Counted from the stretch's first letter, positions 5,342 to 48,368 are shown. The stretch is 64,000 nt of DNA from a virus (IMGVR_UViG_3300042197_004553:15094-79093); one strand, 5' to 3'. Translations and numbers: made by a program. Notes: generated from the sequence alone by a model not told the origin.

Positions 5342-5398
5342 GGCAAACCTCGTAGGGTTAAAGGACGCACCGCCAACACCATGTTGGGGTACACCTTA

Positions 5399-5425
5399 TA
5401 TGCCGCGTTTTTGTCGAGAATTTAG
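5399..5425 (-). promoter_or_regulatory. putative phage promoter CTAAAT-N15-GGCATA (class A)
   Basis: Same hexamers and 15-nt spacer recur at 45323-45349; both copies are intergenic and upstream of accessory genes. Confidence 0.6.
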
Positions 5426-40433: not shown

Positions 40434-40540
40434 GGCGTCCCCTGCGGTTTTTTATAGAGGCTGATGGTAGGAATCAGTTTAATTTTGTCGAGACGCAGTG
40501 TTACAGGCGGTGGCGCGGCGGGCGTGACTTTTTGGCTCAT
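40430..40540 (-). CDS. 36-aa microprotein MSQKVTPAAPPPVTLRLDKIKLIPTISLYKKPQGTP
   Basis: Fills the gap exactly, with ATGA start/stop overlaps at both ends. Confidence 0.55.
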   Translation of the reverse strand: MSQKVTPAAPPPVTLRLDKIKLIPTISLYKKPQGTP

Positions 40541-41781
40541 ATATCCCAAAATCCGTTGTCGTTAGCGGGTTTCACAATGCGCCCAGGCGGTTTGGCCGGC
40601 GGCCGAGCCGGTCCCCCCGCAAACACGACCGGCAGCGGCGCTTCGGGGGCGGTGACTGTCAACGCCCGAATATCTGGCCCAAACTCGCCCGGCTTTTCGT
40701 ACAGAATAACGTACTGCCCAGCATCCAGGCGAACAGATTGCGTCCATCGACCATTGACCCGAGTCGTCGTCTTCCCGACAGCCAAGTTGCGGTTGATCGG
40801 TAGGCCGTGTGCATCAAAATGCGCTTTGGTAAAGATGTAAATATCGGCGCCGGTGATCGGACAGCCGTCGGCCTGCGTATAAATAAGGTTGTCGGCGCCG
40901 CCATAATCCTGATCGACCACGACGGCCCCGCACCCGACGATTGGCAGTGTCGGGCCTTGTCGCGCCGGGGGTTCACCGCCGATTTCTAGCGCGTAGATCG
41001 GATTACTGAACGGCAACAAGCCCATTTTGACTTGGTAAACCACCGGGACGTTGCGGACTGCGGCCAGCACCTGAATGGTTTCGACCAGCCAGCGCTCGTC
41101 CGAGGCGCCGTTAATCCAAACGTCGCCTTTGTTCAACGCCGGAAACCCGATAACGCGCGCATTCACGTAGGCGTTTTCCCGGGTGGCGCCTTTTACATTG
41201 TTGTCAATATCTTCTTGAATCAATTGCGGCGACAGGTCCCAACACTGCATGGGCAGGGTCGGGTGGAAGCCGATTTCAAAACCGGTACCGCTGCACACCG
41301 GGCAATACGAGTCGGTCACCTCTTGGGTGAGCCCGTCGCGGCAGCGTTTGCAGGGTACGCCGTAGCGGAGCGGCTTGGCCAGATACCCGGGCGCCGAAAC
41401 CAGCCGGTGCCTCAACTTTTCTTTGCGGATGATCTCGCGCACCAGCAGCCAGTCTCGCTCCGGAAGTTCACCGAAACAGTTGGCGGCCTGCGAAACATAG
41501 GTGCCGACCGGCGTGGTGAGTTTCACGCGGTAGTGCGTCAGAATATCGTACCCGCCTTCGCGCCACGCGGGGTCGGCGGCAAAGTACGTGTTGGTGACCG
41601 GCGACCCGACGTTTTCCCAGTCAAACGAGTCGCGGACGCCAGAGCGCCCGAACTGCAGTTGAAAGGTGTAGGGCCCGGGGTCGTTAAATAGCCGCTCTAA
41701 CTGCCACCACACGCGGGTTACGCCGCGTACCATGTGGTCAACAGATACCCGGCGGAACGGGAAAATGCGAGATTGGCTCAT
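40537..41781 (-). CDS. putative neck/head-closure protein with zinc finger
   Basis: CKRC...CPVCSGTG; ALNKGDVWI...RWLVETI head-closure-like segment; synteny. Confidence 0.5.
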   Translation of the reverse strand: MSQSRIFPFRRVSVDHMVRGVTRVWWQLERLFNDPGPYTFQLQFGRSGVRDSFDWENVGSPVTNTYFAADPAWREGGYDILTHYRVKLTTPVGTYVSQAANCFGELPERDWLLVREIIRKEKLRHRLVSAPGYLAKPLRYGVPCKRCRDGLTQEVTDSYCPVCSGTGFEIGFHPTLPMQCWDLSPQLIQEDIDNNVKGATRENAYVNARVIGFPALNKGDVWINGASDERWLVETIQVLAAVRNVPVVYQVKMGLLPFSNPIYALEIGGEPPARQGPTLPIVGCGAVVVDQDYGGADNLIYTQADGCPITGADIYIFTKAHFDAHGLPINRNLAVGKTTTRVNGRWTQSVRLDAGQYVILYEKPGEFGPDIRALTVTAPEAPLPVVFAGGPARPPAKPPGRIVKPANDNGFWDI

Positions 41782-41788
41782 AAACCAA

Positions 41789-41795
41789 AGTATAC
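41789..41795 (-). promoter_or_regulatory. putative -10 element GTATACT (class B)
   Basis: Between the terminator and ATG 41781, 7 nt from the start codon, which suggests a leaderless transcript. Confidence 0.45.
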
Positions 41796-41811
41796 CTGAC
41801 CGCTGATAGCT

Positions 41812-41855
41812 AAAAAAAAGGCCGGGGAGAGTTCATGACTCTCTCCCCGGCCTTT
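41812..41855 (-). terminator. intrinsic terminator closing the AAA-VWA-RNA unit
   Basis: Minus strand AAAGGCCGGGGAGAG...CTCTCCCCGGCCTTT, 15-bp stem running into a T8 tract. Confidence 0.85.
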
Positions 41856-42465
41856 CCCCCAATCACCACCTTGCGGTGGGCACACTGATTCAGGGCTCGT
41901 TGTTCTCCGGTCGAGGCGGCTACACCCACGCCAACAAACGCGATGTTTGGCGGCTGCTTTTGGCAGGAATGGGGCACAACGAGAAAGCGTACCTGTGTGG
42001 GGTATGAAACTCCCGCGTTTTGCGACCAGCGCTTAACGCAAAAGTCACACAGGCGTGACAGTAGTTTTAATGGCGCCAAAGTTTACGACGGACAGGGCCC
42101 CACACCCGACTTGGCTGTCCTTCTACAACTCTGGTCTCACACTGCAAGATAACTACCTGAACCGGCGTTTCACTGGCTGGCGCATATAGGGCCAACCGGA
42201 CGTCCCAGAAAGTAGTCAGAGCCCACTAACGGTGGTGTTACCAAATCACCGCGAGGCTGGCGTAACTGACAAAGTCACACCTTTGTGTCCAAGGGCTCTT
42301 CCTCGAAAGCCTTGATTCTGTTCGAACTGCCGCGCCTTTGCGACAATTCGCCGGGAATGCTGACAGAACCGACAGCGTTCCCGGCGTGGCTCCTTCGAGA
42401 ACCACTCGTATAAATTAAACCTAGTTAGGGAAACGGCATACGTAGCCTCCTTTCTGGCGCCATTA
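41856..42465 (-). ncRNA. candidate large structured non-coding RNA (~600-650 nt), family unassigned
   Basis: No credible ORF in an otherwise gene-dense genome; more than 10 stems, several with G-U pairs on the minus strand; a GCAA tetraloop; an 11-bp long-range inverted repeat. Confidence 0.65.
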
Positions 42466-43890
42466 CGTAGCGAGGGCGATCTTGAAACCTTTCAGCATGG
42501 TCGGCAGATTGGTACATCCTTGGACCATGCTGAGTTTTGACAACAATTCCGGGTTCCAATCCGGAATCATGCCCGATTCGACCGTCTCTGGCACCGCGTA
42601 CTTTCCCGAAAAGTAGTTGTGCAGCCAGATCGCGCGGGTCACGCTTTTCAGTCCAATCACCTTGCGGTATTGCTCCGTGGCGTCGTGGTCGCCGATGAAG
42701 ACGACAACACGAACCCTATAACAACTCTGTCCGCCACAGACCTGATCGAACAGGCGTTCCACCTGTCCGGGGTCTGTGGCCACTGGCTTTCCGTTAAACC
42801 ACGGGATGTAGTTCTCCGTCGAGTCCACCTCGCCGTTGCTGTGGGGAAACACCAGCACGTCGGAGCCAGAAACTCCGGCGTAGCCCGCCGCGTTAGCAAG
42901 ATCGCAGGCTATCTGGGCCTGCGCCTCGCAACTCGGCGATACGTCGGGAAGAAACAGCACGCACGGGCGGCCCGTCATACTGTCTTCCTTGAGAGCGTTG
43001 GGCAGCGGCCGGCGGACAACCATTCGCTGCACCAACTTTCGGGCGCTCAACACGGGGATTGGCGCAAAGTTTTCACCCGCGCTGCCTCCCCGGTCGACGA
43101 GCCGATTAATCAGGTCGGCCACCTGTTGTCGCAGTTTTGGCGGAACCCGTTGCAGCCGCCCATGGGCTCCTGCAATCGTTTTCCGCGCCACAAGAGACGG
43201 CGCCGACGCCTGCGCCACGCGGTTGTGCGACGCTTTCCGCCGGGCCATCTGGAGATTCCGTTTTGCCGCACTAACCGAAGCACTGCCGGAGGACTGAGGG
43301 GCTTGTTTGGCGCGGGCAAGGGCGTCGCGATACGCCTGTTGCGCGGCCTTAAGCGCCTGCTGCTCGGGACTTGGCTGTGGTTTAGGGGGAACGGGTTGTG
43401 GCTGGTTCGTCTCCTGCCCAGACGCAGGACCGGTCGTCTGCGTTTGGGTCGGCTGCGCGTCGTCCGGCGACTGGGGCTGCGACCCCTGTTGCTGGCCGGC
43501 GGGCTGTGACGAATTGTTACTACTGCCGCCCGGCTGCTGTTGCTGCTGGGACTGGCCCTGACCGCTCCCGCCGCCACCGGAATTCGGCTGTTGCCGTTGC
43601 CGATTTTGTCGTTCGCGGTCCCAATTGATCGCCGACGTGACGGGCACATCAGGCCCGTACCGTCGCGCCCACGTGTCGACTCTGGACTGCACGTCGACGA
43701 CGCGGCCGGTGGTAGCCTCGATGTTACCGCGTTTCACCGCGGCCCGCTCGATCGCGTATTCCGGCTCGTTCGCGACATGGCAGGCGACTTTGCTTAGCGT
43801 CTTAGGATACGCGGAGCCGCCGAAACTCTCGCCGCAATTGCGGCGCGAGACGCTAAGCATTTTCTGCAGTTCTCGCACCGTAAGGGCCAC
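42463..43890 (-). CDS. VWA (MIDAS)-domain protein with Gln/Pro-rich linker
   Basis: VLFLPDVSPSC (DxSxS) and VVVFIGDHD; AAAGGAG Shine-Dalgarno; follows the AAA+ gene. Confidence 0.7.
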   Translation of the reverse strand: MALTVRELQKMLSVSRRNCGESFGGSAYPKTLSKVACHVANEPEYAIERAAVKRGNIEATTGRVVDVQSRVDTWARRYGPDVPVTSAINWDRERQNRQRQQPNSGGGGSGQGQSQQQQQPGGSSNNSSQPAGQQQGSQPQSPDDAQPTQTQTTGPASGQETNQPQPVPPKPQPSPEQQALKAAQQAYRDALARAKQAPQSSGSASVSAAKRNLQMARRKASHNRVAQASAPSLVARKTIAGAHGRLQRVPPKLRQQVADLINRLVDRGGSAGENFAPIPVLSARKLVQRMVVRRPLPNALKEDSMTGRPCVLFLPDVSPSCEAQAQIACDLANAAGYAGVSGSDVLVFPHSNGEVDSTENYIPWFNGKPVATDPGQVERLFDQVCGGQSCYRVRVVVFIGDHDATEQYRKVIGLKSVTRAIWLHNYFSGKYAVPETVESGMIPDWNPELLSKLSMVQGCTNLPTMLKGFKIALAT

Positions 43891-43906
43891 GAGTTTCTCC
43901 TTTCTT

Positions 43907-44734
43907 CTAGTGTTTCCGCTTAAACTCGCCGTACAGCACGGCGCCGGGAGAAGAAATCTCCCGCTCGATCGCTCGGCGGTCCTTCTCGTCCTTGACGAGG
44001 AAGGCGTCGATCAGCGACTCAGTGTCCTCGACTGAGGTCACCAAATCGCGCGCATGCAGGAGTTCGCGCAACTCCTGCAGGCTGGGCTTGCTTTCGCCCT
44101 TGGTGCGGACGGCGTTGGCCATCTTCACCGCGAGCCGGCACGCGCCGCCGGGCGCGCCCGTGTTCTTGCGGAGCACGTCCACCTCGACGTTCTCCGGCAA
44201 GAACTCCATCGTCACACGAAAGCAGCGGCGCTTTACTGCCTCCGGGATGTCGCCCTCCTCGTTTGCCGTGAGGACAACAAACATCCGCTTGAGGTCCGCT
44301 TGATGCATGTGGTGCCGCGCATCAGGCACCCGGCCATGCTGGAGAAAGTCCAGAATGAGCGGGTAGAACCGGCTGCCGGCCTTTTCCACCTCGTCCAGCG
44401 TCACGACGACGTCGTGGTGCTTTGTAGCTTTGACAGCCCGAAGCAACTGTCCGTCCATGTACGCCTCGTCGGCGTGAGTAACGCCGACCGCGACCTTGCC
44501 GATGTCCACACCCTGATTGACCTCCTCATTGGTCAACCACGGGTGGCAGGGGATGAAGAACTGCTTTGCACCCCTGCCGCGGGCGAAACAGTCGGCAAAG
44601 AATGTCTTGCCCGTGCCGGGCGAGCCGACCAGCAAAACCGCCCGCATCGTCGCCGTGATCAGCGACAGCCAGCGGGCCGCCAGCGACTCACCGCGGCGAG
44701 CGTAGTAATCGGGCAGCAATGTGTTCGTCGACAT
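43907..44734 (-). CDS. MoxR-like AAA+ ATPase
   Basis: Walker A GSPGTGKT, Walker B VTLDEVEK, sensor VVLTANE, EAVKRRC. Confidence 0.85.
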   Translation of the reverse strand: MSTNTLLPDYYARRGESLAARWLSLITATMRAVLLVGSPGTGKTFFADCFARGRGAKQFFIPCHPWLTNEEVNQGVDIGKVAVGVTHADEAYMDGQLLRAVKATKHHDVVVTLDEVEKAGSRFYPLILDFLQHGRVPDARHHMHQADLKRMFVVLTANEEGDIPEAVKRRCFRVTMEFLPENVEVDVLRKNTGAPGGACRLAVKMANAVRTKGESKPSLQELRELLHARDLVTSVEDTESLIDAFLVKDEKDRRAIEREISSPGAVLYGEFKRKH

Positions 44735-44757
44735 GAAACCTCCGCAGGTGTTAATGT

Positions 44758-45245
44758 TTAATTCTCGCTCGGCACCGCGCGGTGCAGAGTGCCGGCTTTC
44801 TGGGCCGCGTACGCCTTGACCTTGGCCTTAGCCGCCTCGGCCGCCGCCTCCTCCTCTCGACGCTCGCGCTCGATGCGCTCGCCATCTTCAAACAAGGCGG
44901 TGGCGACCGCCTTGAAGTCGATCTCGTCCATGAAGAGTCGGCAGATGTTCTCCACAAACGTCATGCTTGTCATCATGTTGTGGACGGCTTCTTCTTCGCC
45001 GTGCTCGTCCGCAATCTTGACCAGCGCCATGATTTCGTTAAGCACCGTCGCGATAGAAGTGCCGATAATGCCGATCGCCCAGAATGTCATGCCACCGATT
45101 GCAGCAGTCCTGTGCTCTTCGTCCCACTCGGTCTTGCCGAGCGCGACTAATTTCTCTTTGGACATCAGTACGGGTGCGAAGACCACCCCAGTTCTTCCGC
45201 TTTTTTGCGGAAGTTCTCCAGCGTCTGCTGTGTCGCGTCGTTCAC
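44758..45245 (-). CDS. hypothetical protein, apparently split by a one-base frameshift near 45186-45189
   Basis: AAAGGAGG plus GTG 45245 opens a 26-codon ORF ending in a TGATG overlap with the ORF from 45165; one extra G would fuse them. Confidence 0.55.
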
Positions 45246-45322
45246 AAAAACCTCCTTTGCATAAAAGAGCCGGGGCGAAACGCCGCGCCGGCGGGGCCGC
45301 ACAGATAAACGGCACCAATGAA

Positions 45323-45349
45323 TATGCCCGTGTTTGCGGCAAAATTTAG
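45323..45349 (-). promoter_or_regulatory. putative phage promoter CTAAAT-N15-GGCATA (class A)
   Basis: Same hexamers and spacing as 5399-5425. Confidence 0.6.
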
Positions 45350-45473: not shown

Positions 45474-46472
45474 CTAGTAGCGAATGCGGATGGCGTCGGT
45501 GTAGGCGCTGTACTTGTAATTCGAACTCACCTCGCCGTAGCAACTTTCGAGGTTAATGCTGGCTTTCGTGGCGCGCACCCACTCCCGATACGCCTGCCAC
45601 CGCGCCTGCCCTGCCCGCTCGTAACTGGCTTCTTTGTTCTGGTCGTTGACCGCGACACCGCCAGCCGAATACTCCAATTGGTTGCGGCGAAATTGCTCGG
45701 CAACCATCATAAATAAATTGGCACAAACGCCTTCAAGCCAGTGATATCGGAACGGAAAATTTTGTGTAGTGTAGGTCGGGCTCAGCGGCGGCGGAATTTC
45801 GTTCCAATACTGCACCGGTCGGGCGATCGCTAGCGCGATCTCAGCGTCGTCAAACATCAAGTTTTCCAGCAGATAACTCTCCCCCGGCGCCGAATCGCGC
45901 AGGTGCAGTCGGACTTCCGCGATGCTGGGCGGTCCGCCGGGTCCGTTATTGCTCCCGGTATCGAATGTGCTCCGGTTGATGATCAAATAAAACGTGTTAG
46001 AAAATATCACACAAGGCTGTGCGGCCGCCTCCGCCGGGATATTGACCAGCGCCATTTCCGCGTAGTAAACGCCCGGGACGCCGACCATGGCCTGCGTGAG
46101 CGCGGCTTCTACGGTGCCGTCGGCGGCGGTGACAACCGCTGCGTTGACCTGCGTGACCGGATTCTGGTTCCCCAGCGCAATCTGCTCTTTGAGCCGCAGC
46201 ACGACTTTAAACAGTGCGGCGTTATTGCAGCCGGTCAGGCTCACCGGGACGCCGTCCTTGTCGTGCATCTGCCAGCGGATCGTGGCGCACTGGCCCTGCG
46301 TAATCGAGATTGCTCGCATCCGGGACAGGAGCGGCTGCCCGTTCTGCGCCGAAACGGGCGCGCTCAGCACGTTCTGACCCGCGCAGGGGACCGGGTTCAG
46401 GACTTGCGGCGTATTGCTGTTGTCGCAACAGGAGACCAGCGGGTGAGACGTTGGCGTGGCGATGACGGCCAT
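45474..46472 (-). CDS. putative head-tail adaptor (neck) with N-terminal BppU-like domain
   Basis: ITQGQCATIRWQMHDKDGVPVSLTG (BppU-like); EVRLHLRD...FDDAEIALAI and YSAGGVAVND (adaptor-like). Confidence 0.55.
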   Translation of the reverse strand: MAVIATPTSHPLVSCCDNSNTPQVLNPVPCAGQNVLSAPVSAQNGQPLLSRMRAISITQGQCATIRWQMHDKDGVPVSLTGCNNAALFKVVLRLKEQIALGNQNPVTQVNAAVVTAADGTVEAALTQAMVGVPGVYYAEMALVNIPAEAAAQPCVIFSNTFYLIINRSTFDTGSNNGPGGPPSIAEVRLHLRDSAPGESYLLENLMFDDAEIALAIARPVQYWNEIPPPLSPTYTTQNFPFRYHWLEGVCANLFMMVAEQFRRNQLEYSAGGVAVNDQNKEASYERAGQARWQAYREWVRATKASINLESCYGEVSSNYKYSAYTDAIRIRY

Positions 46473-47411: not shown

Positions 47412-48338
47412 TCAGACAAACGTGACCTTGGCGAGACCGTTCGTGTGACCGAACGAGCCGCCTTGCGTGTTGTAGGCAAAGTACTCAAGCATGTAAGCCT
47501 CACGACGGATGTACATCGTGGTGGGCTCCAACTCGTAGTTCTTGCCGATGAACTTCGGCGAGGCGAACATGTACAACACATCGTTCGGCACGAGGTTCCG
47601 CTTGATCGTGACGATCCAGCGGCAGTTGAGGAAGTTGGTCTCCGCCCAACCGTTCTTGATGATCTCCTGCGAGAAGTCACCACCCATCTCGTCGCGACCA
47701 AACTTGAGGAGTTCCTTGATCGTGATGTTATTCACGAGGCAGGTCTCCACTTCGAAGTGGCTCGGAGTCGAGGGCATAACCTTCAGGGCGTCAACAATCG
47801 TCTCGCGCGTGATGCCGCCGCTGATCGTCACGTTCTGGGGCACGCCCGAAAGAACGTTGTTCGTATCAACAGTGCCCACCGCCGCGTCGAGCGCGTTGAT
47901 GAACTTGGAGTCTTCCTCGGCCAGCATGTCCTTGATCATGTTGTCCGAAAGCACCTGACGGATGTCGATGACATACGTCCGGAGTTCGTCAACGTCCTTC
48001 ACAGCGCGGGGCGACACGATCCGGTCAAACATGACGCGGTAGCGCGGGCCACGGATGTAGAAGTTGATCGGAAGTGTCGCAAACGGGAGCGACACAGCCG
48101 CCGGAGAATCGGGCTCCTTGTCCACCACCTTGACCGGCTTGTCAGTGTCGACCTGACGATCCAGTTCATCGTTGGTGATGGTCAGCGGCGGCATAATCCG
48201 CCGGTAGAACCCGTCTTCACGCATCTTGGTGCGCGTGAAGTCGTTAACCGCATCGATGGCCTGCTTCTGCATGCCGGGGGTGTCGAGTTGCTCGAAGAGC
48301 GTTTCGTTGAGCAATTGGATTTCTTGCGGAGTGGGCAT
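47412..48338 (-). CDS. major capsid protein (HK97/encapsulin-like fold)
   Basis: 308 aa after GGAGG; IRQVLSDNMIKDMLAEEDSKFINAL spine-helix-like segment; codon usage looks strongly biased; follows protease, scaffold and decoration genes. Confidence 0.7.
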   Translation of the reverse strand: MPTPQEIQLLNETLFEQLDTPGMQKQAIDAVNDFTRTKMREDGFYRRIMPPLTITNDELDRQVDTDKPVKVVDKEPDSPAAVSLPFATLPINFYIRGPRYRVMFDRIVSPRAVKDVDELRTYVIDIRQVLSDNMIKDMLAEEDSKFINALDAAVGTVDTNNVLSGVPQNVTISGGITRETIVDALKVMPSTPSHFEVETCLVNNITIKELLKFGRDEMGGDFSQEIIKNGWAETNFLNCRWIVTIKRNLVPNDVLYMFASPKFIGKNYELEPTTMYIRREAYMLEYFAYNTQGGSFGHTNGLAKVTFV

Positions 48339-48368
48339 TGTAAGAACCTCCATGTTCTATGTAGTGAG

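Follow-up and report, generated by a model that had tools for sequence, protein, structure and literature searches.

A MoxR-type ATPase gene, a divergent VWA gene and a large structured RNA, apparently of a new class, share an accessory cassette in freshwater jumbo phages

A MoxR-class AAA+ ATPase gene, a gene for a divergent VWA/MIDAS protein and a large structured non-coding RNA occur together, and in the loci examined always together, at a single junction in the virion gene block of a family of jumbo phages. The cassette was analysed in the viral sequence IMGVR_UViG_3300042197_004553:15094-79093, a stretch of 64,000 nucleotides (nt) called the window below, in which the block under study lies at 41812-45349. 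An earlier note, made from the sequence alone, had described this block as a self-contained unit inside the virion operon, with a promoter motif, a small gene, a MoxR AAA+ gene, a VWA gene, a large structured RNA and a terminator. All of these elements are present on the minus strand (Table 1), and the block is an accessory ('moron'-type) unit, an insertion/deletion polymorphism present or absent at one junction among relatives of about 200 kb. Judged by sequence comparison, the RNA has no match in Rfam and constitutes a new class of large, structured RNA from phages.

The 660 nt that follow the VWA stop codon have a minimum free energy z-score of -4.8, and a homologous non-coding stretch of 580-770 nt is found in nine distinct genomes. 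Near-invariant islands (GGGACGUC, GAAACGCCGG, UUCUCGUUGU and CCGYCAYG..CGG..AACAACGAGCC) are separated by variable helices. Covariation was counted on the five closest sequences, for which RNAalifold predicted 137 pairs. One predicted helix, between the Shine-Dalgarno (SD) site described below and the U-run of the terminator, consisted of G-U and A-U pairs only and was dropped as probably spurious, which left 127 pairs. Across five relatives these positions are 90.4% paired, and 60 of them are changed on both sides, compared with 31.6±3.5 in 500 shuffles (0/500 reaching this count) and with 9-21 when the partners were slid by 1-3 columns. The covariation score of 0.53 compares with 0.06-0.15 in the slid controls, and the same pipeline gave 45% compensatory pairs in the RNA against 9-19% in neighbouring coding regions. 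The sense strand folds with an energy of -148 kcal/mol and the antisense strand with -115 kcal/mol. Core motifs and several helices are kept where the VWA protein is only 36-42% identical. Conservation with covariation downstream of the VWA gene, the check proposed in the earlier note, thus lies above all controls, and the structured RNA of the non-coding stretch is real.

No reading frame is conserved across genomes in the RNA stretch, and a hidden protein gene was ruled out, the open stretches shifting in frame and position from one genome to another. A CsrA sponge was rejected by eye, since the aligned genomes do not share their GGA loop motifs. Searches of the window and eight relatives against Rfam 15 gave no match at gathering thresholds to any family, including ROOL, GOLLD, OLE, HEARO, raiA, group I and group II introns, RNase P, tmRNA and Y RNA; at E<=10 only terminator-hairpin look-alikes appeared. 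ARAGORN detected neither tmRNA nor tRNA in the window.

Linkage of the RNA to the two genes was assessed on syntenic relatives gathered by three routes: the AAA+ protein, a VWA profile and a profile of the 414-aa protein encoded directly downstream of the block (p414). The p414 profile identified 43 IMG/VR loci of this phage family. In 11 of the 43 the small gene, AAA+ gene, VWA gene and RNA lie between p414 and the 332-aa gene on the upstream side, p332 (tblastn, nhmmer), these 11 loci representing seven distinct genomes, or eight counting the window. About 31 of the 43 are cassette-less, p332 and p414 either abutting (6-65 nt apart) or enclosing unrelated small open reading frames (ORFs). 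A search with nhmmer detects the RNA in 11/11 cassette loci and 0 of the ~31 cassette-less loci. The VWA profile, which detects one copy in each of three cassette genomes used as a positive control, finds no VWA gene anywhere in seven cassette-less genomes (95-100% complete), and BLAST finds no RNA in five of these seven near-complete genomes. Two motif scans of IMG/VR, one for each domain of the RNA, gave true matches on cassette contigs only, and the window's own record contains one copy. Neither of the arrangements that the earlier note regarded as fatal to a joint system, AAA/VWA genes without the RNA or the RNA without them, was found in these loci or in the motif scans. Moreover, every cassette has kept the RNA even as the VWA protein diverged to 36% identity. 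Such strict linkage suggests, without proving it, that the three parts work together.

The block has no blastn match among 50,697 phage records; scans of bacterial genomes gave no VWA or RNA homologue, just generic AAA+ matches, and a metagenome scan with the VWA profile returned two short contigs only. The p332/p414 junction itself (L047-L081; relatives are designated by L numbers where they need to be told apart) is an insertion hot-spot, occupied by nothing, by one or two ORFs of 94-190 aa, or by the AAA-VWA-RNA cassette.

The RNA consists of two domains followed by an intrinsic terminator (Table 1). The long-range helix P1, which closes the 5' domain, was recovered in 8/9 genomes with a different sequence each time (GGCGCC in the window, GUACGACGCC in L007, CCGCAG.CGC in L005, CCGGCACGCGG in L018) and was not resolved in L022. 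The structured region had been thought to begin on the VWA stop codon; P1 does contain this codon in the window and in L004, and in the other relatives it begins 1-30 nt past the stop. In the 3' domain, a long-range helix CUCGUUGU/ACAACGAG is present in most genomes and encloses the conserved CCGYCAYG..CGG element, with compensatory versions in L015 (CUCGGUGC/GCACUGAG) and L022 (CCCGUUGU/ACAACGGG). The proposed strong terminator is likewise supported, 6/12 pairs of its stem (helix 20) being changed on both sides; extra bases or a second hairpin precede the U-run in L005/L007 and L003/L022. A simple terminator scanner missed this site, probably owing to its loop limit.

Within the 5' domain, hairpin P6 (42259-42281) and the strands of P9 (42205-42209 and 42161-42165) present a further pattern. 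In most genomes one and the same four-base sequence occurs in the 3' half of the P6 loop and in the 5' strand of P9, and both copies covary with the strand after GAAACG, for example UUGG/UUGG/CCAA in L014 and GCGG/GCGG/CCGC in L015. This concerted change may reflect an alternative pairing (a switch) or a pseudoknot.

A putative ribosome-loading site lies at the 5' edge of the RNA. The sequence GAAAGGAGG or a close variant is found directly 3' of the P1 5' strand in 9/9 genomes, and an SD, a start codon, 3-5 codons (2 in L005) and a stop codon are kept in all nine. The spacing from SD to start is 6 nt in 6/9 genomes and 5-7 nt in 8/9. The encoded peptides are MPFP (four genomes), MNFT, (V)FT, MTWP, MHWPR and MGTQ, and the four MPFP mini-ORFs differ at synonymous third positions only. 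The SD and mini-ORF together look like a genuine translation-initiation site kept for ribosome loading, not for a particular peptide. A ribosome kept there, on the 5' end, would protect the processed RNA or anchor it, and it may gate the folding of P1 or compete with it. The bar minigenes of phage lambda similarly join a strong SD to a very short ORF, ribosome loading there not serving to make protein. Stabilisation of downstream RNA by strong SD elements is established, with an example in phage SP82 (PMC7509114, citing Hue et al. 1995); the 5' stabilisers of phage SP82, ermC and ompA resemble the present site in that a strong SD loads ribosomes for a non-protein purpose. The site here differs from these stabilisers and from lambda bar in being embedded at the 5' edge of a folded RNA of 620 nt, directly behind its closing helix, and its effect on stability is a prediction.

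The promoter proposed for the end of the block corresponds to a conserved motif, CTAAAT-N17-CATATT, whose two hexamers and spacing are exact in 7/7 cassette genomes; the conservation stands as observed, and promoter function is our reading of it. A form CTAAAW-N15-GGCATATT also precedes every other insert at the p332/p414 junction, and the motif is absent where p332 and p414 abut. It would thus be a promoter type common to this phage family. A scan for the sigma-70 consensus found no promoter, the conserved motif being of another type. A near-exact copy (CTAAAT..GGCATATA, one mismatch) at 5397-5425 of the window, minus strand, suggests that this class of promoter is used elsewhere in the genome too.

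A second copy of the motif stands 70-90 nt upstream of the AAA+ start in 4/7 cassette genomes, and none of the seven has a copy in the interval from the VWA gene to the RNA; the core unit would therefore be promoter-AAA-VWA-RNA-terminator. The small gene, which the earlier note included in the unit, is present there and is probably a neighbouring module rather than part of this core, and it shows weak similarity to small ORFs that cassette-less relatives carry at this junction. It has no family match in Pfam, PHROG or PADLOC. In all six relatives examined it is one continuous ORF of 150-210 aa, and in the window it is split: a 26-aa ORF ends in TGATG, overlapping the start codon of a 135-aa ORF. 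The split could be real, with translational coupling, or stem from a frameshift or from faulty assembly. In the window the small gene and the AAA+ gene are just 23 nt apart, so that everything from the small gene through the RNA is probably read from the promoter at 45349. A simple terminator scan of the minus strand from the AAA+ start to the RNA found no terminator-like site, the scanner being the same one that missed the terminator at the end of the block. In two relatives an extra ORF lies between the RNA end and p414 (L003:9011-9568, 129 aa; L022:~1680-2596, cut off), the one in L003 with its own SD and its own terminator. These ORFs are inserted after the end of the RNA, and the cassette therefore ends at its terminator.

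The assignment of the ATPase to the MoxR class is well founded. The protein matches Pfam AAA_5 (PF07728) with 51.3 bits against a cutoff of 22 (E 1.6e-13) over the whole profile, and its Walker A (GSPGTGKT) and Walker B (LDEVEK) motifs are both intact. Its best solved relative is NorQ of the NorQD complex (chain 9qhd_A), with a near-full-length alignment of residues 32-259 to 35-258 (E 1.1e-6). A sister group (P0171-P0177) shares 44-47% identity, and an IMG/VR scan with the profile of this group returned unrelated AAA+ proteins. PADLOC gave weak generic AAA+ matches, the best at 4.4e-5 (PDC-M37B), and no match for the VWA and small proteins.

The VWA gene starts 16 nt downstream of the AAA+ gene. 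Its product matches no Pfam, NCBIfam, PHROG or PADLOC model, and none of 40 homologues has a Pfam match. Nevertheless, the sequence LPDVSPSC, which carries a DxSxS motif (D316, S318, S320), is invariant in these 40 homologues, and the AlphaFold model comprises a confident N-domain (1-100), a disordered Q-rich linker, a helical region of only ~100 aa and an alpha/beta C-domain (309-475), the last with predicted local distance difference test scores mostly of 80-96. With this C-domain, Foldseek found the MDN1 MIDAS domain (probability 0.96). VIA-align found the VWA domain of the Ro60 protein of Thermus phage phiLo (Z 9.2; 141 residues aligned, root-mean-square deviation 3.9), followed by the Rea1 MIDAS (Z 7.3) and Deinococcus Rsr (Z 7.1), with NorD also among the matches; fold scores are moderate, and Rossmann-like folds are also among the matches. 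A profile search of 1.84 billion representatives recovered 181 relatives, of which the remote ones align to the VWA half only, and one of these, P0192, has a sub-threshold match to VWA_CoxE (E 3.7e-4). The VWA identity proposed earlier is therefore upheld by the invariant DxSxS and the MIDAS/VWA-like model, though not by any Pfam match: it is a reasonable assignment from motif, predicted fold and gene neighbourhood, not from a family model. In the N-domain (43576-43890 of the window; L011-L018:4001-4315), a CxCxxC motif is found in 5/7 relatives aligned. It is absent from L018 and from the window protein, where it is deleted, and any metal site there is therefore dispensable.

The following explanation is proposed. 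A family-type promoter would drive the AAA+ and VWA genes, and in the window the small gene too; transcription would run on unbroken into the ~620-nt RNA and stop at the intrinsic terminator, the RNA being made as the 3' part of the AAA-VWA transcript. It would then serve the MoxR-VWA remodelling machine as scaffold, cofactor or substrate, and it is plausible that AAA, VWA and RNA form one RNA-protein complex. The interpretation in the earlier note is upheld in part: the self-contained unit, its RNA and their linkage are supported, and a joint machine acting on a host complex is a proposal. That the RNA works in partnership with the MoxR-VWA pair is possible, and we tentatively favour it, because of the strict linkage, the lack of a separate promoter and the abutting position. 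Several observations weigh against it. No RNA-binding domain can be recognised in the VWA protein, whose linker is rich in Q and not basic and whose N-domain, folded alone, gave no fold match (best Z 3.5). The mini-ORF peptides vary between genomes and support no specific peptide function. The co-occurrence may reflect a single ancestral gain inherited as a block: two state changes are needed on the p414 tree, one not being excluded, and compatibility with a single gain limits the statistical weight of the association. Finally, we know of no described MoxR-VWA system that uses RNA.

Such a partnership could take a more specific form, in which a three-component ribonucleoprotein (RNP) of a previously undescribed kind would be docked on the host ribosome by the SD and mini-ORF, and the AAA+-MIDAS pair would remodel the ribosome or another RNA-protein complex in the infected cell, as a phage-made analogue of Rea1/Midasin in function. 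Rea1/Midasin also joins a dynein-like AAA_5 ATPase to a MIDAS domain, which is a top fold match here, and remodels an RNA-protein particle, the pre-60S ribosome. However, it is a single giant eukaryotic protein and recognises ubiquitin-like (UBL) domains of assembly factors rather than RNA; the comparison is one of analogy only, and we consider this form quite improbable.

Alternatively, the RNA could be an autonomous ornate non-coding RNA in the manner of ROOL and GOLLD, assembling with itself only, or countering a host defence or a host factor as a decoy or sponge, and merely sharing a transcription unit with the two genes. ROOL and GOLLD turned out to form RNA-only cages. They are Rfam families of large ornate RNAs with cryo-electron microscopy structures (PMC12286853). 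Like them, the RNA described here is large (ROOL and GOLLD measure 600-800 nt), multi-domain and highly structured, with strong covariation and no known function, and they too are often borne by phages or prophages; its size, fold, GNRA-type loops and phage origin indeed resemble those of phage-borne large RNAs (PMC12286853). The lack of an evident RNA-binding domain in the VWA protein agrees with an autonomous RNA, and so does the position of the cassette in a moron hot-spot where relatives hold unrelated accessory genes. On the other hand, cmscan found no sequence or structure match to ROOL or GOLLD, and the RNA differs from both in its position at the 3' end of a protein operon, its strict linkage to MoxR/VWA genes, its SD and mini-ORF and its origin in G+C-rich freshwater jumbo phages. 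In the collections searched it always came with AAA/VWA, in none of seven genomes does it have a promoter motif of its own, and it has stayed beside the VWA stop codon through the divergence of the VWA protein to 36% identity. An autonomous role seems somewhat unlikely.

The RNA might also be a cis-acting 3' untranslated region (UTR), whose fold and ribosome-loading site would make the AAA-VWA mRNA more stable or adjust how it is translated, for instance by keeping 3' exonucleases out or through feedback binding of the encoded proteins, with nothing acting in trans. Its position directly behind the VWA stop codon and its end in the operon's terminator are those expected of such an element, and in the two genomes whose P1 contains the stop codon, this helix would compete with terminating ribosomes. 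However, the distance from stop codon to P1 varies over 1-30 nt, and coupling to termination is therefore not conserved; about 130 conserved pairs, together with invariant loops and long-range helices spread over 620 nt, far exceed the needs of known 3' stabilisers, and a mini-ORF is unnecessary for 3' protection. A purely cis-acting function is doubtful.

The location of the cassette between the major capsid and sheath genes would fit a part in building the virion, with the MoxR-VWA pair as a chaperone of head, neck or tail assembly on the model of Acidianus two-tailed virus (ATV) and the RNA as a scaffold or packaging cofactor like the phi29 pRNA. A chaperone role in virion assembly has been proposed for the MoxR-VWA pairs of jumbo phages and ATV (PMC7824862). 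The pRNA, which is likewise a phage-encoded structured RNA in a structural or packaging context and works with an ATPase, has 174 nt, is essential and binds the portal and an FtsK/HerA-type packaging ATPase; the RNA described here can be absent from members of its phage family and would have a MoxR AAA+ ATPase as partner. Moreover, about three quarters of the related phages possess the same flanking structural genes (51-73% identity) and no cassette, which is therefore not needed to build a virion, and the cassette sits at a general hot-spot for morons. We regard a role in virion assembly as unlikely and give it very little weight. That there is no functional RNA at all, and only a decaying coding region or a G+C-rich spacer with chance structure, is effectively refuted: G+C-rich DNA does fold well unaided, the coding controls giving 124-194 predicted pairs, but covariation lies far above the shuffled, slid and coding controls, conserved islands are separated by compensatory helices, no frame is conserved and the RNA is retained in every cassette.

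Two families of protein systems invite comparison with the proposed partnership. MoxR-VWA pairs (NorQ/NorD, CbbQ/CbbO, CoxD/CoxE, RavA/ViaA, p618/p892 of ATV and the jumbo-phage pairs of PMC7824862) share with the cassette the order of an AAA_5-type ATPase gene followed by one that encodes a VWA adaptor with a MIDAS. The present ATPase has NorQ as its best solved relative, and NorD and MIDAS domains are among the fold matches of the VWA protein. Unlike the cassette, the known pairs have no dedicated RNA, and the VWA protein described here is too divergent for Pfam, has a novel N-domain and is not accompanied by a target enzyme encoded nearby.

Ro60 (Rsr)-Y RNA RNPs, which include phage-encoded Ro60, resemble the cassette in that a VWA/MIDAS protein gene stands beside a structured non-coding RNA with pairing 5' and 3' parts. 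Ro60 binds Y RNA, and a phage Ro60 as the top structural match of the modelled VWA domain is therefore suggestive, although the fold is generic. The Ro60 match covers the VWA part only, Pfam detects no TROVE module in the VWA protein, and helices of only ~100 aa leave no TROVE/HEAT ring; the protein is therefore not Ro60. In addition, the RNA has about six times the size of Y RNAs and matches no Y RNA model, and Ro60 systems have no MoxR partner.

Large structured RNAs without a known function are seldom met, and new biology has followed from each new class. This one arrives with two defined candidate partners, the MoxR ATPase and the VWA protein, which constitute an experimental handle. If the three parts bind each other, the cassette would be the first MoxR-VWA system known with an RNA component. 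The role of the built-in ribosome-loading site is directly testable, and the natural occurrence of cassette-plus and cassette-minus relatives should help the search for a phenotype.

Table 1. Features of the cassette and its surroundings (window coordinates)
Feature	Coordinates	Strand	Remarks
Promoter-like motif CTAAAT-N17-CATATT	45321-45349	-	both hexamers and spacing exact in 7/7 cassette genomes
Small gene, N-terminal piece	45166-45244	-	26-aa ORF, strong SD; aligns with N-terminus of relatives' single ORF
Small gene, C-terminal piece	44758-45165	-	135-aa ORF; hydrophobic stretch (by eye)
MoxR-class (NorQ-like) AAA+ ATPase, 275 aa	43907-44734	-	Pfam AAA_5 and NorQ match
Divergent VWA/MIDAS protein, 475 aa	42463-43890	-	novel N-domain, Q-rich linker, helical region, C-terminal VWA domain
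RNA 5' domain, ~400 nt	42068-42465	-	about ten helices, closed by P1; internal helices covary (helices 1-12)
Helix P1	42453-42465 with 42068-42080	-	long-range, closes 5' domain
SD site AGGAGG	42446-42451	-	directly 3' of P1 5' strand
Mini-ORF AUG CCG UUU CCC UAA	42425-42439	-	element 42425-42451 with SD
RNA 3' domain, ~200 nt	41856-42060	-	helices 13-19: covarying hairpin, long-range helix, hairpin with GNRA-type loop
Intrinsic terminator	41812-41852	-	~14-bp G+C-rich stem, then eight U; stem covaries
p414 upstream element TAGCTATCAG...TATACT (= AGCTATCAG...TATACT)	41782-41811	-	outside cassette; found with nhmmer in cassette-less relatives
HK97-type major capsid gene	47412-48353	-	upstream of block
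p332, 332-aa gene	45474-46472	-	upstream flank of block
p414, 414-aa gene	40537-41781	-	downstream flank of block
Sheath-like gene, 1055 aa	36454-39621	-	downstream of block

The IMG/VR record that holds the window is a virus sequence of 79 kb with a completeness estimate of 39%. Its relatives are G+C-rich genomes of about 200 kb from freshwater tailed jumbo phages. One of them, IMGVR_UViG_3300032298_001038 (L006/L007), is a contig of 198,312 bp. An overlap of ~120 nt between its ends, situated within the VWA gene, marks the genome as probably complete and circularly permuted or terminally redundant, with the VWA gene cut by an arbitrary contig start.

All genes at 36-49 kb of the window are on the minus strand, in the 5' to 3' order major capsid gene, two small genes, p332, the block, p414, a 236-aa gene and the sheath-like gene. 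The description of the flanking genes as neck-type could not be confirmed: both are conserved genes of the virion block without assigned function, and an ESM Atlas look-up of the two proteins returned unnamed viral clusters only. The p414 protein is much better conserved across the family (51-73% identity) than the cassette proteins, and it contains two CxxC pairs, a possible zinc ribbon. In cassette-less relatives the sole nhmmer match is to the last ~40 nt (U-run and TAGCTATCAG..TATAAT), directly upstream of the p414 homologue, and this piece therefore belongs to p414, not to the cassette. The corresponding element, TAGCTATCAGCG..TATAAT, is kept in cassette genomes and detectable in several cassette-less relatives, and occurs once only in the window.

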